A DNA stretch of 13,704 nucleotides from a virus (Duplodnaviria; Heunggongvirae; Uroviricota; Caudoviricetes), in IMG/VR virus record IMGVR_UViG_2740892422_000001, positions 1-13,704 of that record. One strand, 5' to 3'. The notes below the pieces were generated by a model that was not told where the DNA came from, searched no databases, and was given only the letters and a program-made list of their open reading frames with translations. The position numbers and the translations under genes were made by a program. Shown here one piece after another: positions 393 to 13,704 of this stretch (positions are counted from its first letter, which is position 1; each line of letters opens with the position of its first letter).

Positions 393-1264
393 TCGGCCGA
401 GGTAACTTTGCCGGACAGGAGCGTAATGTGGCAGATCTCGATGATGGTTACGCCAGACTATCAAATATGCTGCTTGAGGCTTATTCAGGCGCAGATCTGA
501 CCAAGCGACAGTTTAAAGTGCTGCTTGCCATTCTGCGTAAAACCTATGGGTGGAATAAACCAATGGACAGAATCACCGATTCTCAACTTAGCGAGATTAC
601 AAAGTTACCTGTCAAACGGTGCAATGAAGCTAAGTTAGAACTCGTCAGAATGAATATTATCAAGCAGCAAGGCGGCATGTTTGGACCAAACAAAAACATC
701 TCAGAATGGTGCATCCCTCAAAACGAGGGAAAATCCCCTAAAACGAGGGATAAAACATCCCTCAAATTGGGGGATTGCTATCCCTCAAAACAGGGGGACA
801 CAAAAGACACTATTACAAAAGAAAAAAGAAAAGATTATTCGTCAGAGAATTCTGGCGAATCCTCTGACCAGCCAGAAAACGACCTTTCTGTGGTGAAACC
901 GGATGCTGCAATTCAGAGCGGCAGCAAGTGGGGGACAGCAGAAGACCTGACCGCCGCAGAGTGGATGTTTGACATGGTGAAGACCATCGCGCCATCAGCC
1001 AGAAAACCGAATTTTGCAGGGTGGGCTAACGATATCCGCCTGATGCGTGAACGTGACGGACGTAACCACCGCGACATGTGCGTGCTGTTCCGCTGGGCAT
1101 GCCAGGACAACTTCTGGTCCGGTAACGTGCTTAGCCCGGCCAAACTCCGCGACAAGTGGACCCAGCTCGAAATCAACCGTAACAAGCAACAGGCAGTCGT
1201 GACAGCCAGCAAACCAAAACTCGACCTGACAAACACAGACTGGATTTACGGGGTGGATCTATGA
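365..1264 (+). CDS. O: Replication initiation protein O (lambda gpO)
   Basis: 299-aa ORF matching lambda O from memory ([40 protein letters not shown]...TDWIYGVDL). RBS AGGAG upstream. Stop overlaps the next ATG (ATGA at 1261-1264) as in lambda O/P. Contains the ori iterons. Confidence 0.97.
713..840. repeat. ori-lambda: four ~19-bp iterons (each an internal inverted repeat tccctc...gaggga) followed by an AT-rich unwinding region
   Basis: Seen directly: catccctcaaaacgaggga (712-730), aatcccctaaaacgaggga (732-750), acatccctcaaattggggga (~754-773), tatccctcaaaacaggggga (~780-799), then A/T-rich caaaagacactattacaaaagaaaaaagaaaagattattc (800-840). This is the classical O-binding origin inside the O coding sequence. 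Confidence 0.9.
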
Positions 1265-2079
1265 AAAACATCGCCGCACAGATGGTTAACTTTGACCGTG
1301 AGCAGATGCGTAGGATCGCCAACAACATGCCGGAACAGTACGACGAAAAGCCGCAGGTAAGCCGTATTCTGGCGATTACGACAAGCGATGAGAAATGCCT
1401 GCAGACTGCATCCAGAGATGATTTGGCATCAAAACTGAAAACCGCCGGATATTCACGCAGTTTTATTCAGTATTCATCGGGTAATAAATACGCTGCGTTA
1501 TCTGCATTTGGCCGGGCATTCACGGTTAATTTCAATGGCAGTAATACCGCGATTACGCTCAAGTTTAAGCATGAGCCGGGGGTCGGGTATGAAACACTGA
1601 CAGTCAGCCAGGCATCGGCACTTGATGCAAAAAACTGCAATGTGTTCGTGTACTACCAGAATGATACAGCTATCCTCCAGCAGGGAGTGATGGCTAACGG
1701 CGATTTCTTTGATGAACGCCACGGCCTGGACTGGTTACAGAATTATGTGCAGACCAGCCTCTATAACCTGCTTTATACCAGCACCACGAAAGTTCCCCAG
1801 ACTGAAGCCGGTATTACCCGACTGTTATCAAATGTTGAAAAATCACTGGATCAGGCCGTTCAGAATGGACTGATTGCTCCGGGCGTATGGAACGGGGGCG
1901 ACCTTGGTCAGTTGTCATCAGGTGACACACTGCCCAAAGGTTATTACGTATACGCTCAGCCGCTGGATGAACAGGCTCAATCAGAACGTGAAGCCCGTAA
2001 GGCTCCGGTGATTCAGGCTGCAATAAAACTTGCAGGCGCGGTTCATTACGCTGACGTACAGATTAACGTTGTTCGCTAA
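1261..2079 (+). CDS. In-frame fusion ORF: lambda P N-terminal ~32 aa joined to the C-terminal ~240 aa of a tail-sheath-like protein
   Basis: First 32 aa ([33 protein letters not shown]) match lambda P; at nt ~1359 the sequence diverges and the remainder ([12 protein letters not shown]...[45 protein letters not shown]) resembles a C-terminal sheath domain by composition and by its position immediately upstream of a tube gene. Sheath proteins of this type are about twice this length, so the N-terminal half appears to be missing. The sheath assignment is from memory, not an alignment. Confidence 0.55.
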
Positions 2080-7108: not shown

Positions 7109-7450
7109 ATGAGGGGTATTATTTTTCTGTTAGCTGTCTTTTCTGCGTGCAGCGCGTGGGCGGATGGCTTCACGGTTAAATGCGGTGGCTACACTATGGT
7201 TGCAAACCAGGGCGAGTTATCGACTATCAACGGTGAAAGAGTTACCTCTCAAAAAATCACCGAACTGGGTACCAATGGTTTGAAAGTAGACATGGGGCTT
7301 ATGCCTGCCAAAGACGGTAACAACTACGGCTTTGAATACATTCGTCGCCCTGGTACCGAAACGCGATTCCTGAATGTCCAGCTTCTGCAGAACAGCATGG
7401 ATGCGCCGAAAATCATCGGATCTTTCCCTTGTAAAAAAGTGGCTGGGTGA
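7109..7450 (+). CDS. Small secreted protein or lipoprotein (113 aa) with N-terminal signal peptide; accessory (moron-like) gene
   Basis: N-terminus MRGIIFLLAVFSACSAWADG has a positive n-region, a hydrophobic core and an AWA-like signal peptidase I site; an alternative lipobox-like FSAC is present. The start is coupled to the hub gene stop (RBS GGGGATGAG). GC content looks lower than in the flanking tail genes. No structural-protein counterpart is expected at this position. Confidence 0.6.
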   Translation: MRGIIFLLAVFSACSAWADGFTVKCGGYTMVANQGELSTINGERVTSQKITELGTNGLKVDMGLMPAKDGNNYGFEYIRRPGTETRFLNVQLLQNSMDAPKIIGSFPCKKVAG

Positions 7451-7476
7451 AGGTAACCTGAAATTCGTAACGCCTG

Positions 7477-7515
7477 AAAAACAACAAAATGTGCTCTAAA
7501 AACTGTTGTTTTTTG
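7477..7515 (+). terminator. AT-rich hairpin followed by a T-run (weak intrinsic-terminator-like element or regulatory inverted repeat)
   Basis: Perfect 10-bp inverted repeat aaaaacaaca (7477-7486) / tgttgttttt (7504-7513) with a 17-nt loop and trailing T-run, 27 nt after the signal-peptide gene stop. The stem is A/T-only, so terminator strength is doubtful. Confidence 0.3.
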
Positions 7516-7543
7516 AGACGAGCGATTACACTGCACTGACTTT

Positions 7544-7572
7544 TTGATGGTGGATTGCCATCGATATGCTAC
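7544..7572 (+). promoter_or_regulatory. Candidate sigma70-like promoter for the two-gene cassette
   Basis: TTGATG (7544-7549), 15-nt spacer, TATGCT (7565-7570) in the 150-bp intergenic region; AGGA RBS ~12 nt before ATG 7600. This is a weak match to consensus and is a prediction only. Confidence 0.25.
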
Positions 7573-7599
7573 TTCATTAAAGCCAGGAATAACTAAAAC

Positions 7600-8331
7600 A
7601 TGAGTTTAGCGCAGCCAAAATCAGGAGAACTGTTAGATCTTCTGACTCCTTCATTAACTAAGGGTGAAAACCTTCTGAGTGAGTTTGAAATCCATCGAAT
7701 CATTCGTGAAGCGAAGAAACTACCTGAACGTTATCAGGGGCTATCAATTGAAGGCTTAGCTAAGCTTGTTCTTGGTGAAATAGATGAAGGATGTTCACTC
7801 TGTGAGCGGGGGTTGAGAATAGCGCCTAACGATCCAGTTTCTTTTTGTAACTATACGATTGCGCTGCGTAACTTAGGTTTGCATGCTCGCCAGTATGTGA
7901 TGATTCAGAAAGCATCTGATTCACTTAATCCAACGATATTGGCTGAGGTTGCTACAATTTCTGCATACTGGGTTGATATCGATTTGCTTGAAAAGGTGAT
8001 GCCGATGCTAACTGCAATGGAAGTACCGCGCCCTGAAGATATGGGCAAATGGTATGACACGCTCAATTATCTGCATACCCAAAAAGATCATGCTCAGGAG
8101 CTAAAAACTATTGGGCGGCTCATGATGAACGTTGCAGAAAAGTACCGCGCTCGTCTTGCTGGCGCTCATGCTTTTTATGTAATGTCAGAACTTGATACGC
8201 TGTTCGTTGAAGTCAAAACAGACGATCCAGTGCTTCTTTCGCAGATGAATAATGCCTTGGCTGATGAGATTATTATTGCGGGGCTTGCGGATTCAGAATG
8301 CGTCGGATGCTTTGAAGCCGGGGAACTCTAA
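7600..8331 (+). CDS. Hypothetical protein A of the accessory two-gene cassette (243 aa); TPR-like helical repeat signature and two CxxC pairs
   Basis: ORF with AT-richer codon usage than the flanking tail genes. ERGLRIAPNDPVSFCNYTIALRNLGLHARQYVMIQKA fits a TPR-like consensus. CSLC near residue 65 and CVGC near the C-terminus could form a Zn site. No recognisable phage structural family. Confidence 0.7.
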   Translation: MSLAQPKSGELLDLLTPSLTKGENLLSEFEIHRIIREAKKLPERYQGLSIEGLAKLVLGEIDEGCSLCERGLRIAPNDPVSFCNYTIALRNLGLHARQYVMIQKASDSLNPTILAEVATISAYWVDIDLLEKVMPMLTAMEVPRPEDMGKWYDTLNYLHTQKDHAQELKTIGRLMMNVAEKYRARLAGAHAFYVMSELDTLFVEVKTDDPVLLSQMNNALADEIIIAGLADSECVGCFEAGEL

Positions 8332-8759
8332 TGTCGGTTGAGCATACCTGTTTTCTTGAATTGGCTAAGCATTCCCTGGCTCTAAACGGTGAGATGTGGA
8401 CGAGAAATGCTATTAGCCGAGCATACTATGGTATGTACCATTCCGCCTTACGGATCACCAACAATCTGGTACCGACCGCTACACAAGATGGTGAAAAACT
8501 AAAAGGTGGAGTTCACATGCGAGTCTATACGGCCTTTTGTAGTGGTGAGGCAGCTGCACTTAACGATGTTGATGTTAACGCAGTAAAGAAAATCGGCGTT
8601 AAACTGAAAATGACGCATGCCCAACGTGTTAATTCTGATTACAAGCTTGAGCGGAAAATCAACCGGATTACCGCGAGAAGTGTAATTCTGGATGCGGAAG
8701 AGGTCGATGCAATCGTTAATCAATTACTGAAGATTGGTGATGACTCGTTAACTGCATAA
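8331..8759 (+). CDS. Hypothetical protein B of the accessory two-gene cassette (142 aa); small helical protein with an R-x6-H segment (HEPN-like possibility, unverified)
   Basis: ATG overlaps the stop of protein A (TAATG), RBS GGGGAA, so the two are translationally coupled. Segment NAISRAYYGMYHSALRI contains R-x6-H and resembles the first helices of HEPN-type domains, but the canonical motif placement is not confirmed. Followed by a strong terminator. Confidence 0.7.
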   Translation: MSVEHTCFLELAKHSLALNGEMWTRNAISRAYYGMYHSALRITNNLVPTATQDGEKLKGGVHMRVYTAFCSGEAAALNDVDVNAVKKIGVKLKMTHAQRVNSDYKLERKINRITARSVILDAEEVDAIVNQLLKIGDDSLTA

Positions 8760-8779
8760 GCTGAAATTTCTCAAAATTC

Positions 8780-8808
8780 AAACCCGCCACTTGGCGGGTT
8801 TTTTGCTT
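8780..8808 (+). terminator. Rho-independent terminator closing the accessory cassette
   Basis: GC-rich stem aaacccgcc (8780-8788) / ggcgggttt (8793-8801) with a 4-nt loop, followed by tttttgctttc. It lies 21 nt after the protein B stop and immediately before the RBS (GGAG) of the spike gene. Confidence 0.75.
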
Positions 8809-9929: not shown

Positions 9930-11128
9930 TGGCTCTGAACCTTGATTCTCTCGGTTTATCTGCAAAGGTAACCGCGGAGGGGATCAGTGCGCCTGATTAT
10001 CAGACGATACTCAGCACCCTGATTAGCTATTTTCAGCAGATTTATGGCAGTGATGCCTACCTCGAACCGGACAGCAAAGACGGCCAGATGGTGGCTCTGA
10101 TGGCGCTGGCGATTCATGATGCCAATAATACTGCGATAACTGTCTACAACTGTTTTTCACCGGCAACCGGCTATGGGGCTGCACTGACCAGTAACGTGAA
10201 AATAAATGGTATTTCACGTAAAGGTGCGACGAACTCTACGGTTGATTTGCTTCTTACAGGAACTGCCGGAACAACCATCATTAATGGCAGCGTGAAAGAC
10301 AGTAATAATGTGATATGGCGTTTGCCTGCTTCAGTGGTGGTCGGCGTGGATGGTACAGTGATGGCGACCGCAACATGTTCTGTCAGTGGTGCAGTGGCGG
10401 CGCTGGATGGAACTATCACTGAAATTAATACGCCAACCCGTGGCTGGGTTTCGGTAACCAATCCTGCTGCGGCTACTGTGGGCACTCCGGCAGAAACTGA
10501 TGCGGAGTTACGTATCCGACAGTCGCAAAGTGTTGCGTTGCCATCAATAACCCCATTTGAAGCACTGGATGGTGCTGTTTCTAATGTTACCGGTGTAACC
10601 CGCCACAAACTCTATGAAAACGATAATGGTTCGGAGGACGGTAACGGGTTACCGCCACACTCTGTTGCTGTAATTGTGGATGGCGGTGATGTGACGGATA
10701 TTGCTCAGGCTATCAGAGGGAATAAAGGCCAGGGGACAGCCACTCACGGTACAACATTCGTTACGGTTCCGGATAAATACGGCAATCCCCATGTAATCAA
10801 ATTCTCGCGTTCCAGTGATGTGCCTGTTTATGCCCGGATTAAATTAAAAGTTTTTACGGGTTATACCTCACAGATAGGGCAGCAGATCCAGCAGGCTATT
10901 TCCGACTATATCAATAGTCTGATGATTGGTGATTCGGTCCTTTTAAGTCGCATTTACTCACCGGCGAATCTTGGCGTGGTGAGTGGCGGGAATGCACGCT
11001 ATTACGATATTCAGGAACTGACGATTGGGAAATCCCCGGGGGCTTTGTCGTCATCAAACATTGATATCAGATACAACGAATCCGCGTCCTGTACCCCGGA
11101 AAATATCGTTATAACGGTGGAGTCATGA
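9929..11128 (+). CDS. Baseplate J-like protein (Mu gp47 / P2 gpJ family)
   Basis: 399-aa ORF, ATG overlapping the upstream stop (TAATG). Size and synteny (after the gp25-like gene, before the gp48-like and tail fiber genes) fit the baseplate J family. The intact length contrasts with the split J remnants I recall in E. coli e14. Confidence 0.8.
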   Translation: MALNLDSLGLSAKVTAEGISAPDYQTILSTLISYFQQIYGSDAYLEPDSKDGQMVALMALAIHDANNTAITVYNCFSPATGYGAALTSNVKINGISRKGATNSTVDLLLTGTAGTTIINGSVKDSNNVIWRLPASVVVGVDGTVMATATCSVSGAVAALDGTITEINTPTRGWVSVTNPAAATVGTPAETDAELRIRQSQSVALPSITPFEALDGAVSNVTGVTRHKLYENDNGSEDGNGLPPHSVAVIVDGGDVTDIAQAIRGNKGQGTATHGTTFVTVPDKYGNPHVIKFSRSSDVPVYARIKLKVFTGYTSQIGQQIQQAISDYINSLMIGDSVLLSRIYSPANLGVVSGGNARYYDIQELTIGKSPGALSSSNIDIRYNESASCTPENIVITVES

Positions 11129-11805
11129 GCAAATACACCGAACTAATCACGAACTACCACGCCACCAAACCTAAATTTCTTGCACATGTTGATCTGATGA
11201 CCCGGCCGCTTATTGATGTTGCGGCTGCCACCAGAGGGCTGATTACTGCATTTGATATTGACTCTGCGGTTGGTGTGCAACTTGACATTCTGGGATTGTG
11301 GATCGGACGTAGCCGTGTTGTCAGCCAGCCTATTTCAGGTGTCTATTTCAGCTGGGATACCGACGGGCTTGGATATGATCAGGGTGTATGGCAGGGGCCA
11401 TACGATCCTGATTCCGGATACATGTACCTCAGCGATGAAACTTATCGTGTCATCCTTAAAGCGAAGATTGCGATTAATAACTGGGACGGACGGAATGATT
11501 CGCTTCCGGCAATTCTTGACGCGGCAACAGCAGGATCCGGACTGCGAATGCAGATAGTCGATAACCAGGACATGACGATATCGGTCTGGGTCTTTCCTGA
11601 TACTGATATTTCAGATGTATCGCGTGAGTTAATTGCGGCAATTAAACAGGGGTATCTCACAGTAAAAGCCGCCGGGGTATGGGCGGGTGGCATTGAAACA
11701 CCTTCGGTGGAAACCCCATCGGAAGGCTCAAAATTTTTTGGTTTTGATATGGATAACGAATTCATCAGTGGTTTTGATGTAGGAGCATGGGGAGTATTAC
11801 TCTGA
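11125..11805 (+). CDS. Baseplate/tail-fiber-proximal protein (Mu gp48-like; the family I recall as DUF2313/YmfQ)
   Basis: 226-aa ORF coupled by ATGA overlap to baseplate J. It occupies the position of Mu gp48 between baseplate J and the tail fiber. Confidence 0.65.
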
Positions 11806-12599
11806 TGGCGAAAAATGACTTTAAAGCGTTTGCAACGGATCGAAATGCCAATGTTATATCGCAGGAGGAATGGGAAGCGTTGCCCGCGCTTTTATCTGGA
11901 TTTACAGCAGGGAAAGCCTCCAGTGCGCAAGTCAATAAGGTTATTCGGCAGGCCAGCTTTATTGCTGCAGCTCTGGCCCAGTTTGTAAGTGACAAAACGC
12001 AACGGGATGTACTTGATAATGGTGATCTGCCCGGTTTTGTTGAATTGCTGGGATCGGGGTTTGCTGTTGAATACCTGAGCCGCAAGAATCCGTTTGGCGA
12101 TATCAAATCGGACGGCACGGTGAAAACGGCTCTCGAAAACCTTGGTTTGGGAGAAGGTGCTCCAGCTATTGGCGTTCCGTTCTTCTGGCCCTCCGCGGCA
12201 ATGCCAAATACTGTAATCGACAGCTGGTCCGGTATGGTGTTTTTGAAGTTCAACGGGGCGAAATTTTCTGCCTCTGATTACCCTGTGCTGGCGAAAGTGT
12301 TTCCTTCGCTGGTATTACCTGAAGCCCGCGGTGATTTCATTCGTATCTGGGATGATGGGCGAGGGGCGGACAGTGGGCGAGCATTATTAAGCTGGCAGGC
12401 AGCAACAGCTTTATCGCAATTTGGCGGTAATTATCCAGAAGGGTCCGGCCATGCGATTGCTGATTACGATGGAATATCAGCACACCAACCAGGTTTCTCT
12501 CGATTTCAGTACACCAGTAACTCAGTAGGAGATGGTGTTAATTTTATTGCCGTCAGACCACGTAACATTGCATTTAACTTTCTGGTGAGGGCTAAATAA
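11805..12599 (+). CDS. Tail fiber protein (constant N-terminal part plus variable C-terminal part)
   Basis: ATG at 11805 overlaps the upstream stop (TGATG) and has GGGGAG ~10 nt upstream; the ORF track's 11787 start lacks RBS spacing. It is followed immediately by a tail fiber assembly gene coupled by TAATG. A hix/gix-like site lies at codons ~109-117. Confidence 0.75.
12131..12156. other. Candidate Gin/Hin/Pin-family invertase crossover site inside the tail fiber gene
   Basis: Sequence ctctcGAAAACCttGGTTTggGAgAA is an imperfect palindrome closely resembling hixL (TTCTTGAAAACCAAGGTTTTTGATAA) and gix as recalled; about 19 of 24 half-site positions match hixL. Its placement inside the fiber gene upstream of the fiber-assembly pair matches Mu G and P1 C segment architecture. 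Confidence 0.4.
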
Positions 12600-13192
12600 T
12601 GAAACCTGTTTTTGATGAAAATGGACTGGCTACAGTGCCGGGTGATATGCGTTGTTTTTATTATGATGCAGTAACGTATGAATATACGGGCTGGTCTGAT
12701 GAATATATTAATACTGGTGTAAGTATGCCCGCCTGTTCCACTGGTATTGACCCTGGCGAAAACATTCCGGGAAAAGTGGCTGTATTTACAGGTAAGGGAT
12801 GGAGCCATGAAGAGGACCATCGCAATGAGACTGTTTACTCAATCGAAAATGGCGCAGCTGTTACAGTGGATTATATCGGTGCCATCAAAAACGGTTATGT
12901 CACGCTTTCACCGTTAACGCCATATGATAAATGGGATGGTGAGAAATGGGTGACAGATACTGAGGCACAACACAGTGCCGCAGTAGAAGCGGCAGAAGCA
13001 CAGCGCCAGTCACTGATTGATGCAGCAATGGCTTCCATTAGTCTGATTCAGCTGAAATTACAGGCCGGGCGGAAACTGACGCAGGCAGAAACAACCCGGC
13101 TTAACGCTGTGCTGGATTACATTGACGCGGTGACGGCAACAGATACCAGCACCGCGCCGGATGTCATCTGGCCTGAACTGCCGGAGGCGTAG
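12599..13192 (+). CDS. Tail fiber assembly protein (Tfa / Mu U-like)
   Basis: 197-aa ORF. The C-terminus LNAVLDYIDAVTATDTSTAPDVIWPELPEA carries the conserved C-terminal motif of the tail-fiber-assembly family. Start coupled to the tail fiber stop. Confidence 0.8.
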   Translation: MKPVFDENGLATVPGDMRCFYYDAVTYEYTGWSDEYINTGVSMPACSTGIDPGENIPGKVAVFTGKGWSHEEDHRNETVYSIENGAAVTVDYIGAIKNGYVTLSPLTPYDKWDGEKWVTDTEAQHSAAVEAAEAQRQSLIDAAMASISLIQLKLQAGRKLTQAETTRLNAVLDYIDAVTATDTSTAPDVIWPELPEA

Positions 13193-13604
13193 GCCATTCA
13201 ATATCTGGCGCACCGGAAGTATCGACCAGCTCCAGTGCGTCCAGATAATCCAGCCACAAATTATATTGCGCCAGTTCCTCACCTTTCAGGCGACCAATCG
13301 CCGCTTTACCAGGCCATTGTTTACTGTTCATATAATCGTTGGCCTGATTAATCAGTTGCTGCTTTTCCAGTTCGGCTGCAGCAATCTGTTCCTCATGTGT
13401 TGGTGGTGGAATTTCAGACCATGCAGGAAAACCATTTTCTCCAGCGATACGGATTTTTCCTTTCGGCGGTAATCCGGAAAACTCAATATACACCTGCTCA
13501 TCAACTTCGACAGCATCATCTGGCCATGAGTCAGCTTGAATGTAATCCTCTTTCATCTCCAGCGGATAGAAAGAGTTTGTAGTCGCGGAATATATGTAAT
13601 TCAT
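13164..13604 (-). CDS. Alternative tail fiber assembly protein (Tfa', Mu U'-like) on the opposite strand
   Basis: 146-aa - strand ORF whose C-terminus (NLWLDYLDALELVDTSGAPDIEWPTPPAVQAR) carries the same family motif as the + strand Tfa. Its 3' end overlaps the + strand tfa 3' end by 29 bp (convergent). Confidence 0.8.
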   Translation of the reverse strand: MNYIYSATTNSFYPLEMKEDYIQADSWPDDAVEVDEQVYIEFSGLPPKGKIRIAGENGFPAWSEIPPPTHEEQIAAAELEKQQLINQANDYMNSKQWPGKAAIGRLKGEELAQYNLWLDYLDALELVDTSGAPDIEWPTPPAVQAR

Positions 13605-13625
13605 TTTTCAGGTGATGCTGCCAAC

Positions 13626-13704
13626 TTACTGATTTAGTGTATGATGGTGTTTTTGAGGTGCTCCAGTGGCTTCTGTTTCTATCAGCTGTCCCTCCTGTTC
13701 AGCT
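13626..13704 (-). CDS. 3' end of a - strand ORF entering from beyond the window (probable alternative tail fiber variable domain)
   Basis: The - strand frame is open from the window edge to TAA (RC of 13626-13628), encoding ...AEQEGQLIETEATGAPQKHHHTLNQ*, and ends 22 nt upstream of the Tfa' start. Only 25 codons are visible, so identity is inferred from position. Confidence 0.3.
   Translation of the reverse strand, partial: AEQEGQLIETEATGAPQKHHHTLNQ

Follow-up and report, generated by a model that had tools for sequence, protein, structure and literature searches.

The window, the whole stretch of DNA that was analysed (13,704 bp), is the entire contig JRGC01000269.1 (assembly GCA_000754855.1), and the record contains nothing past 13704. 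It carries a prophage whose early region is lambdoid and whose tail is that of a myovirus (contractile and PhiTE/E217/SEN34-like, with DUF2612 and a gp47 baseplate). A 15.9-kb deletion joins the replication gene P to the sheath gene; the prophage has no head, lysis or late-regulation (Q) genes and half of the sheath gene is missing. The tail-fibre locus contains the following features.

11805..12599, + strand: tail-fibre gene (264 aa; Sc plus the currently expressed Sv), an ORF whose start agrees with the RefSeq annotation of relatives
11805..12143, + strand: Sc, the constant N-terminal 113 codons, outside the invertible segment; this flank is the same in both orientations of relatives
12131..12154, strand not applicable: left crossover site (pix-type), TCTCGAAAACC-TT-GGTTTGGGAGA, central dinucleotide 12142-12143
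12144..13610, strand not applicable: in-window part of the invertible segment, 1467 bp, found inverted as one block when L009 is compared with L001 and L013 with L005
12599..13192, + strand: tfa, assembly chaperone for Sv, 197 aa (PF02413, E=1e-27; phrog_105)
13164..13604, − strand: tfa', chaperone for the alternative tip Sv', 146 aa (PF02413, E=4e-38)
13611..13704, + strand: IS1 left end, nt 1-94 (terminal inverted repeat and insA start), where the contig stops

Fibre residues 1–119 and 103–264 belong to separate PHROG fibre families, and the boundary between them (∼119 aa on the N-terminal side and ∼160 aa on the C-terminal side) coincides with the crossover site. The C-terminal part, Sv, is 40% identical to StfE of e14, tfa is 63% identical to TfaE and tfa' is 60% identical to TfaP; at the conserved linker, window positions 12078–12160 are 95% identical to e14 stfP. 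The two chaperone genes are convergent and overlap by 29 nt. Sc, Sv, tfa and tfa' all lie inside the window and Sv' lies outside, its place being taken by IS1; in siblings Sv' is present (PF21882) and has a gp53-like C-terminal domain. The initial annotation had described a plus-strand fibre gene and tfa, a minus-strand tfa' and the end of a further minus-strand ORF. The first three stand, whereas the last (13611–13704) is nt 1–94 of IS1, and the short frame left open on the minus strand at the end of the window is the antisense of the IS1 terminus. A promoter and terminator scan of 11000–13704 gave no excess relative to shuffles.

Crossover site and inversion in relatives

The left site is a 24-bp imperfect palindrome within fibre codons 109–117, with its central TT in codon 113. 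It matches TCTCNNAAACCNNGGTTTNNGAGA with 0 mismatches (0.01 expected by chance), and no second crossover site was found in the window even with three mismatches allowed (single match, 12131–12154). It is 18/26 identical to Mu gixL and, far from being absent from homologous invertible segments, is identical across 32 nt to the e14 left site of E. coli K-12. The published e14 inverted repeat TTGGTTTGGGAGAAGG is included within it, and these e14 repeats, identical to those here, have been shown experimentally to be Pin inversion sites (PMC12529663). On these sequence matches, the palindrome that had been placed at ∼12131–12156, near codon ∼110, and proposed as a 26-bp Hin/Gin-type site is a true crossover site. 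Sites of this family span 26 bp and are built from two imperfect 12-bp half-sites (…AAACC / GGTTT…) inverted about a 2-bp core. Inversion at 12142–12143 would exchange a tip of about 151 aa.

Two pairs of relatives display the inversion. In the substrains BH100N and BH100 (pair L001/L009), whose prophage is 95–96% identical to the window and has an intact pinE, inversion between the two sites is the sole difference: positions 7138–8989 of L001 are reverse-complemented and the flanks are 100% identical. Within the pin-truncated lineage, L005 and L013 differ by inversion of L005 9063–10909, and their flanks are 100% identical for 5641 nt on one side and 4993 nt on the other. The breakpoints in both pairs fall inside the crossover sites. 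The whole segment in sibling L005 measures 1833 bp from central dinucleotide to central dinucleotide. The partner site of the siblings, located about 370 bp past the point where IS1 starts here (L005 10892–10915), shares its 24-bp core (TCTCCCAAACCAACGTTTATGAAA) with the right site of e14 and has a central AA versus TT. The predicted post-inversion fusion Sc–Sv' is in frame, and complete E. coli genomes contain 156 Sc–Sv and 17 Sc–Sv' junctions. Two contigs (L017 and L018) contain nothing but the segment, from site centre to site centre, which indicates mixed orientations within single cultures. The evidence for both orientations comes from relatives only; this genome was assembled in a single orientation (Sc–Sv), and the contig runs straight through the site, the sequenced culture having no visible orientation mixture. 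That inversion occurs at this site is thus proven by relatives, at the level of compared sequences, and the site, the layout and the inverted relatives support assignment of the region as a Hin/Gin/Cin/Pin-type invertible tail-fibre segment. The initial annotation had likened it to Mu G, P1 C and e14 and had proposed that inversion swaps the C-terminal ∼150 aa of the fibre together with tfa. Both proposals agree with the relatives, in which the two orientations that it had suggested looking for are found.

A different account would make the palindrome a coding coincidence within a fixed locus, the tfa/tfa' pair a leftover of cassette shuffling and the orientation differences a product of horizontal replacement. 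Cassettes 99.3–99.8% identical to this one are carried on unrelated Mu-like backbones (L003 and L012), and horizontal exchange bounded by the conserved linker therefore does occur. However, the pairs with 100% identical flanks differ solely by a precise site-to-site reverse-complement, and the two sites share an inverted repeat of only about 15 nt, a length at which RecA does not recombine efficiently. Segment-only contigs ending at site centres, with the mixed orientations that they indicate, and the experimental demonstration that identical repeats serve Pin inversion in e14 (PMC12529663) also argue against this account, which is extremely improbable.

Site-specific inversion, the reading that we prefer, would proceed as follows. 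A serine DNA invertase would pair 12131–12154 with an inverted partner about 1.84 kb downstream, both sites would be cut at the central TT/AA and strand rotation would flip the segment, so that codons 1–113 (Sc) would be joined in frame either to Sv and tfa (the state here) or to Sv' (the gp53-like tip) and tfa'. This mechanism is established for the family and has been shown for relatives of this cassette; for this genome, what is said of pin, Sv' and the partner site comes from its siblings only.

The IS1 end and the state of pin

Similarity of all relatives to the window stops at 13610. The adjoining sequence opens with GGTGATGCTGCCAACTTACTGAT, the terminal inverted repeat of IS1, and runs on into the start of insA. 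Comparison by eye shows its first 60 nt to be those of K-12 IS1A; over the full 94 nt it is identical to the IS1 of L014 (itself 99.7% identical to IS1A over 395 nt), and the final 100 nt of the window give a 100% match to annotated IS1A/IS1B copies on plasmids. A complete IS1 is 768 bp long and is flanked by a target duplication of 8–9 bp; the contig ends 94 nt into this 768-bp element. The 13610/13611 junction lies in AT-rich DNA, and the IS1 start, 6 nt upstream of the tfa' ATG, displaces a native GGAA Shine-Dalgarno-like motif that is present in L005. Exact-pattern scans of genome, viral and metagenome contig collections found neither the tfa'–IS1 junction nor the predicted reciprocal IS1–Sv' junction, and the tfa'–IS1 junction is absent from complete E. 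coli genomes. The partner site and invertase had been expected just beyond the window; instead, the window is the whole contig and IS1 cuts the segment.

IS1 may have entered by simple insertion or may have produced an adjacent deletion that removed Sv', the partner site and the pin remnant, and we regard the two as about equally probable. The closest relatives carry an IS1 1.84 kb downstream in the same orientation as that of the window, and this coincidence of position and orientation may reflect a deletion, adjacent deletions being a frequent outcome of IS activity (PMC11708052). In L014, IS1 nt 1 is joined to L005:12376, and the L006 contig stops 4 nt before that point. Two other junctions in L014 (tfa/IS1 nt 395 and Sv/pin remnant) were considered as rearrangements and rejected, as each is a join made in scaffolding, with a single N at the seam. 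After a simple insertion the segment could still flip, with an alternative state lacking tfa' expression; the IS1 right end (…AAGTTGGAGTCATTACC) would then adjoin CATTTTTCA+TTCCATATAGATAAATTAAC (CATTTTTCA + TTCCATATAGAT...), with Sv' and the partner site present. After an adjacent deletion, nothing of Sv', partner site or pin remnant would be left and the fibre would be locked as Sc–Sv; the IS1 right end would adjoin the sequence after L005:12376 (TTTTTTTAAACACTC…), with Sv' absent.

A serine invertase gene (resolvase catalytic domain and HTH_7) is absent from the window. In 99.97%-identical siblings without this IS1, only 36 codons of pin are left, fused to an XF1762/Mom-like ORF, and pin is likewise cut to 36 codons in every relative at least 98.6% identical that is readable on that side (L002, L005, L006, L007, L013 and L014). 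An intact 184-aa pinE occurs only in relatives of 95–96% identity (L001, L004 and L009), 68 bp from the partner site. The initial annotation's suggested search for a partner site and a recombinase downstream thus recovers the former in siblings, and of the latter only the remnant. The XF1762 partner ORF and the variable ORFs at 7600–8759 had no match in PADLOC, and most of them had none in Pfam; a literature search on XF1762 also gave nothing.

The remnant in siblings keeps the 5' 108 nt of pin, the stretch that is conserved at the nucleotide level. Enhancers of Hin and Gin lie within the 5' end of the invertase gene (PMC3798978), and by analogy the 108-nt stump may carry a Fis enhancer. A frozen switch in the pin-truncated lineage was rejected, since L013 and L014 show the inverted state with identical flanks. 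With pin truncated and both orientations nevertheless found in siblings, the comparison implies inversion in trans; several Pin paralogues are known to invert in trans on identical repeats (PMC12529663). In CM148343, the only member of the pin-truncated lineage with a complete genome, a query with the conserved pin 5' end matched one place only, and this genome may therefore have no helper invertase.

It is very unlikely that the locus is a complete, self-sufficient host-range switch with its partner site and an intact pin/gin/cin-type invertase directly downstream of the window. Exactly that layout exists in L001, L004 and L009 (95–96% identical, with intact 184-aa pinE), but here the segment is broken by IS1 at 13611, which already refutes contiguity, and pin is cut to 36 codons in all readable relatives of at least 98.6% identity. 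With the head, lysis and Q genes absent and the sheath gene truncated, no virion host range is left. From its gene content, the prophage is judged unable to make virions and the switch is a relic unless co-opted by the host. The loss of head, lysis and late-regulation genes and of half of the sheath gene therefore makes host-range switching historical here, not current, and the earlier description of a switch altering receptor specificity is not supported for this copy.

We conclude that 11805–13610 very probably represents the left three quarters of an e14-P-segment-type (Pin family) fibre cassette, interrupted by IS1, in a defective prophage. IS1 breaks the cassette at 13610/13611, 6 nt upstream of the tfa' start codon, and the cognate pin would already have been the 36-codon fusion to the XF1762/Mom-like ORF, judging from the 99.97% siblings. 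With pin so reduced, any inversion would therefore have to be in trans, by another resident Pin-family invertase.

Co-option by the host, in which a fibre-tip product blocks adsorption of other phages, would give the cassette a present role and account for its survival in decaying prophages without an invertase. The precedent is e14 StfE2, a fibre-tip protein from one orientation that is reported to have this effect (PMC12529663). The cassette has been kept and flips in a lineage without pin and, independently, without large parts of the prophage; Sv' shares the gp53-like C-terminal domain with StfE2 (PMC12529663); and a 130-aa ORF beside the pin remnant of L005 reads across the partner site into Sv', as does e14 stfE. 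Against this, IS1 separates or deletes precisely the Sv' side in this contig, the decay (IS1 and deletions) looks neutral and the neighbouring ORFs have no PADLOC matches, and co-option is decidedly unlikely. Also unlikely is an orphan cassette lacking its own invertase that is flipped by invertases encoded elsewhere in the genome. It would be kept in prophages that are decaying, in at least three independent ways in the clade, for a benefit that one of its products gives the host, such as an adsorption block like that of e14 StfE2, and the 108-nt stump would persist as the carrier of the cis enhancer.

Comparison with known systems

Under the preferred reading of an interrupted Pin-family cassette, the cassette and its site are real, yet the cassette is cut by IS1, has probably lost its invertase and lies in a prophage that cannot build particles; in this genome it should not be taken for a functioning host-range switch. 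The occurrence of the pin-truncated lineage in both orientations is natural-population support, of modest interest, for Pin paralogues servicing each other's segments.

The e14 P segment (stfP-tfaP-tfaE-stfE-pinE) shares with this locus the 32 nt of the left site and, through the siblings, the 24-bp core of the partner. Both have the order fibre, tfa, convergent tfa' and fibre', with a tfa/tfa' overlap of 29 nt, both contain the conserved linker (26 protein letters) and both reside in a cryptic prophage; the PinE proteins of e14 and of the relatives are 96% identical. They differ in cargo alleles (for Sv, tfa and tfa' by the identities of 40%, 63% and 60% given above, while Sv' is 31% identical to the tip of StfP) and in phage backbone, and here the cassette is IS1-interrupted in a lineage with truncated pin.

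The Mu G segment with Gin (S-U-U'-S'-gin-com-mom) has the same architecture, with the crossover within the fibre gene, about 68 bp from the outer site to the invertase start codon, an invertase 5' end that is highly conserved at the nucleotide level and a Mom-type gene downstream of the invertase position. Unlike the present cassette, it has a gixL that is 18/26 identical with a central TC rather than TT, a segment of 3 kb and a constant fibre part of 170 aa, and it belongs to a functional phage with intact gin. The Salmonella Hin/H segment resembles the locus in its 26-bp site design and, presumably, in a Fis-enhancer mechanism, the Fis-bound enhancer lying about 100 bp from one site in the invertase 5' end (PMC3798978); Hin, however, flips a promoter and not coding cassettes. 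As in known IS1 insertions and adjacent deletions, the junction has an exact IS1 terminus in AT-rich sequence, and the closest relatives have a same-orientation IS1 1.84 kb away. The cassette is a degraded member of the known Pin/e14 P-segment family.

Fibre genes and crossover site

The right-hand part of the window contains the following features.

11805–12599, + strand: tail-fibre gene (264 aa), its ATG overlapping the baseplate-wedge (DUF2612) stop codon
12131–12154: crossover site TCTCGAAAACC-TT-GGTTTGGGAGA, codons 109–117, right at the fibre module boundary
12599–13192, + strand: tfa, tail-fibre assembly (197 aa; PF02413)
13164–13604, − strand: tfa' (146 aa; PF02413), convergent with tfa
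13611–13704, + strand: IS1 nucleotides 1–94, comprising the terminal repeat GGTGATGCTGCC… and the start of insA

Two sets of fibre families among the PHROG profiles match the fibre protein, one at residues 1–119 and the other at 103–264, which places a module boundary at about codons 103–119. The palindromic pattern TCTCNNAAACCNNGGTTTNNGAGA matches at 12131–12154 with no mismatches; this is its sole match in the window, even with up to three mismatches, against 0.01 expected from shuffles. The coordinates and description of the site in the initial annotation are thus correct.

Cassette orientation in relatives with intact or truncated pin

In prophages of the same family with 95–96% identity (e.g. 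CP025703, strain BH100N), the gene order continues past tfa'.

After tfa', − strand: gene for the alternative fibre tip Sv', with a gp53-like C-terminal domain
After Sv': partner site TCTCCCAAACC-AA-CGTTTATGAAA
Starting 68 bp past the partner site: intact pinE (184 aa; Resolvase and HTH_7), 96% identical to e14 PinE

BH100 (CP025251), the sister substrain of BH100N, carries that prophage in the same chromosomal position with 100% identical flanks, and the 1.85 kb between both sites is reverse-complemented. Its fibre gene consists of the constant N-terminal part (Sc) fused to Sv' and is followed by tfa'; the breakpoints fall in the 18-nt overlaps corresponding to the sites. The pair is a natural demonstration of inversion at the sequence flagged by the initial annotation. 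The computed post-inversion fusion is in frame (229 aa; end of Sc, then AAKREVGTG…). At a query coverage of at least 80% per complete E. coli genome, a synthetic junction of Sc with the tip expressed here (Sv) was found in 156 genomes and an Sc–Sv' junction in 17.

Copies of the cassette with 99.3–99.8% identity are found on two Mu-like backbones (L003 and L012) with another fibre N-terminus and another invertase, and their similarity to the window begins at the site or at a short conserved linker before it. Such near-identical copies indicate that the cassette itself is mobile between phage backbones. The linker of ∼80 nt (window 12078–12160, encoding 26 residues) is 95% identical to e14 stfP and is where, towards the left, similarity to the cassettes on Mu-like backbones ends (L012). 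The linker seems to anchor, by homology, the horizontal exchange of entire cassettes.

The closest siblings (L005, L006 and L007) are contigs without the IS1 of the window and are 99.97–99.98% identical to it up to 13610. Beyond this point they contain, in order:

Directly after the point where IS1 starts in the window: 15-nt spacer
After the spacer: Sv', a 130-aa ORF as called
After Sv' (L005 10892–10915): partner site
After the partner site: pin stump of 36 codons, beyond which the DNA abruptly becomes AT-rich (34% GC)
In one 234-aa ORF together with the stump: XF1762/Mom-like protein (NF045478, E = 6e-50; phrog_1384)
After the 234-aa ORF: 344-aa ORF (phrog_30351), hydrophobic at its C-terminus

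The stretch from the stump to the 344-aa ORF (L005 10972–12707) gave no match in PADLOC. With pin cut to 36 codons, the cognate invertase is dead in this lineage. The retained 108 nt are a stretch near-invariant in nucleotides between pin and gin; in Hin and Gin, a Fis-dependent enhancer is located in this 5' stretch of the invertase gene (PMC3798978), and the stump, coinciding with it, may be regarded as a putative enhancer.

Compared with L005, the related locus L013 has flanks that are 100% identical over 5.6 and 5.0 kb and a cassette in the opposite orientation, and the cassette of L014 is likewise in the inverted state. In two further assemblies (L017 and L018), from strains that may have either an intact or a truncated pin, the contigs comprise nothing but the segment, each extending between the two site centres, as is typical when a culture contains both orientations. 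As the perfect inverted repeat is only ∼15 nt, site-specific inversion by an invertase in trans is the most economical explanation; the cassette of the pin-truncated lineage would be flipped by an enzyme supplied from elsewhere, and PinE, PinQ and PinR have been reported to act in trans on identical repeats (PMC12529663). No helper invertase gene was identified for this lineage.

The IS1 junction and the defective prophage

Similarity to the window ends at 13610 in all relatives. The first 60 nt of 13611–13704 are identical to K-12 IS1A (comparison by eye), all 94 nt equal the IS1 copy in L014 (6589–6983), which shares 99.7% identity with IS1A across 395 nt, and the final 100 nt of the window are 100% identical to annotated plasmid copies of IS1A/IS1B. 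What had been read as the end of another − strand ORF is just a frame that stays open antisense to the IS1 terminus. On the upstream side of the tfa' ATG, 6 nt separate it from the IS1 end, which replaces the GGAA motif preceding this ATG in uninterrupted siblings, so that tfa' has lost its upstream gene and its likely ribosome-binding site. Both window ends are contig ends, the window being the complete 13 704 bp contig JRGC01000269.1 (GCA_000754855.1), and the assembly broke in IS1, which is why the sequence stops at 13704. This break and the number of the contig (269) suggest an IS-rich, highly fragmented assembly, possibly of Shigella or of an E. coli rich in IS1.

The junction joins L005 position 10536 to IS1 nucleotide 1. 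In L014, IS1 nucleotide 1 is joined in the same orientation to L005 position 12376, which lies within the 344-aa ORF, and the L006 contig ends 4 nt before this position; L006 and L014 show no mismatch to the window over shared DNA. The junction therefore fits two histories, which we consider about equally likely: an independent IS1 insertion, or a leftward adjacent deletion from a pre-existing IS1 that removed L005 10537–12376, containing Sv', the partner site, the pin stump–XF1762 fusion and the 5' part of the 344-aa ORF. IS1 in particular makes adjacent deletions. The second history accords with adjacent deletions being a common outcome of IS activity (PMC11708052). The right-hand IS1 junction is absent from the contig and had no match in genome, viral or metagenome contig collections. 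L014 is a scaffold, and its odd joins, single N characters, only mimic rearrangements.

At the left contig end are cII and a lambda-type O gene, together with the initial 34 codons of P, which read in frame into the last 238 aa of the tail sheath protein (DUF3383; window 1261–2079, junction 1357–1362). A 15.9-kb stretch of the intact relative in CM148343 (L020 3982–19901) is absent, and the join shows 6 nt of microhomology. The loss covers ren, the nin genes, Q, two tRNAs, the lysis genes, terminase, the genes for portal, head and neck, and the N-terminal part of the sheath. The P–sheath junction occurs in no complete E. coli genome. L006 (GCA_027552465.1; L006 1–277) has a different deletion, ∼9.2 kb spanning TerL to the sheath gene's end, so the lineage is decaying independently in different strains. 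Between the baseplate genes, window 7450–8780 has a lower GC content (0.42–0.47) and two ORFs (243 and 142 aa) with no Pfam or PADLOC match; relatives carry different genes there (e.g. a 190-aa ORF and a YafO-toxin-domain protein in L008), and the region resembles a slot for morons or accessory genes.

Having lost head, lysis and late-regulation genes, the prophage cannot produce particles, which leaves a host-range switch without a target. The working switch proposed initially is thus not upheld: the cassette is cut by IS1, its own invertase is probably truncated and its partner site possibly deleted. Apart from the fourth ORF, the locus had been described accurately; its interpretation was right as to kind and wrong as to state.

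Comparison with known invertible segments

The left P-segment boundary of e14 in E. coli K-12 MG1655 is the same 32 nt, ACGGCTCTCGAAAACCTTGGTTTGGGAGAAGG, as here. These contain the 16-nt repeat TTGGTTTGGGAGAAGG, reported in a 2025 study as the place where the P segment (1797 bp) is inverted by PinQ and PinE (PMC12529663). Mu gixL, taken from the Mu genome, is identical to the crossover site at 18 of 26 positions. From these two comparisons the site is hix/gix-like in general and pix in particular and, together with inversion in relatives, the e14 identity bears out an invertible fibre segment with its crossover site at 12131–12154. The pin stump and XF1762/Mom-like ORF of L005 echo the order of Mu gin–com–mom, and, as e14 shows, the host can co-opt relics of this kind. 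The sole mildly new element is the evidence from populations that a cassette lacking its invertase still flips; the cassette is a Pin-type invertible fibre segment, a degraded new example of a thoroughly known family.
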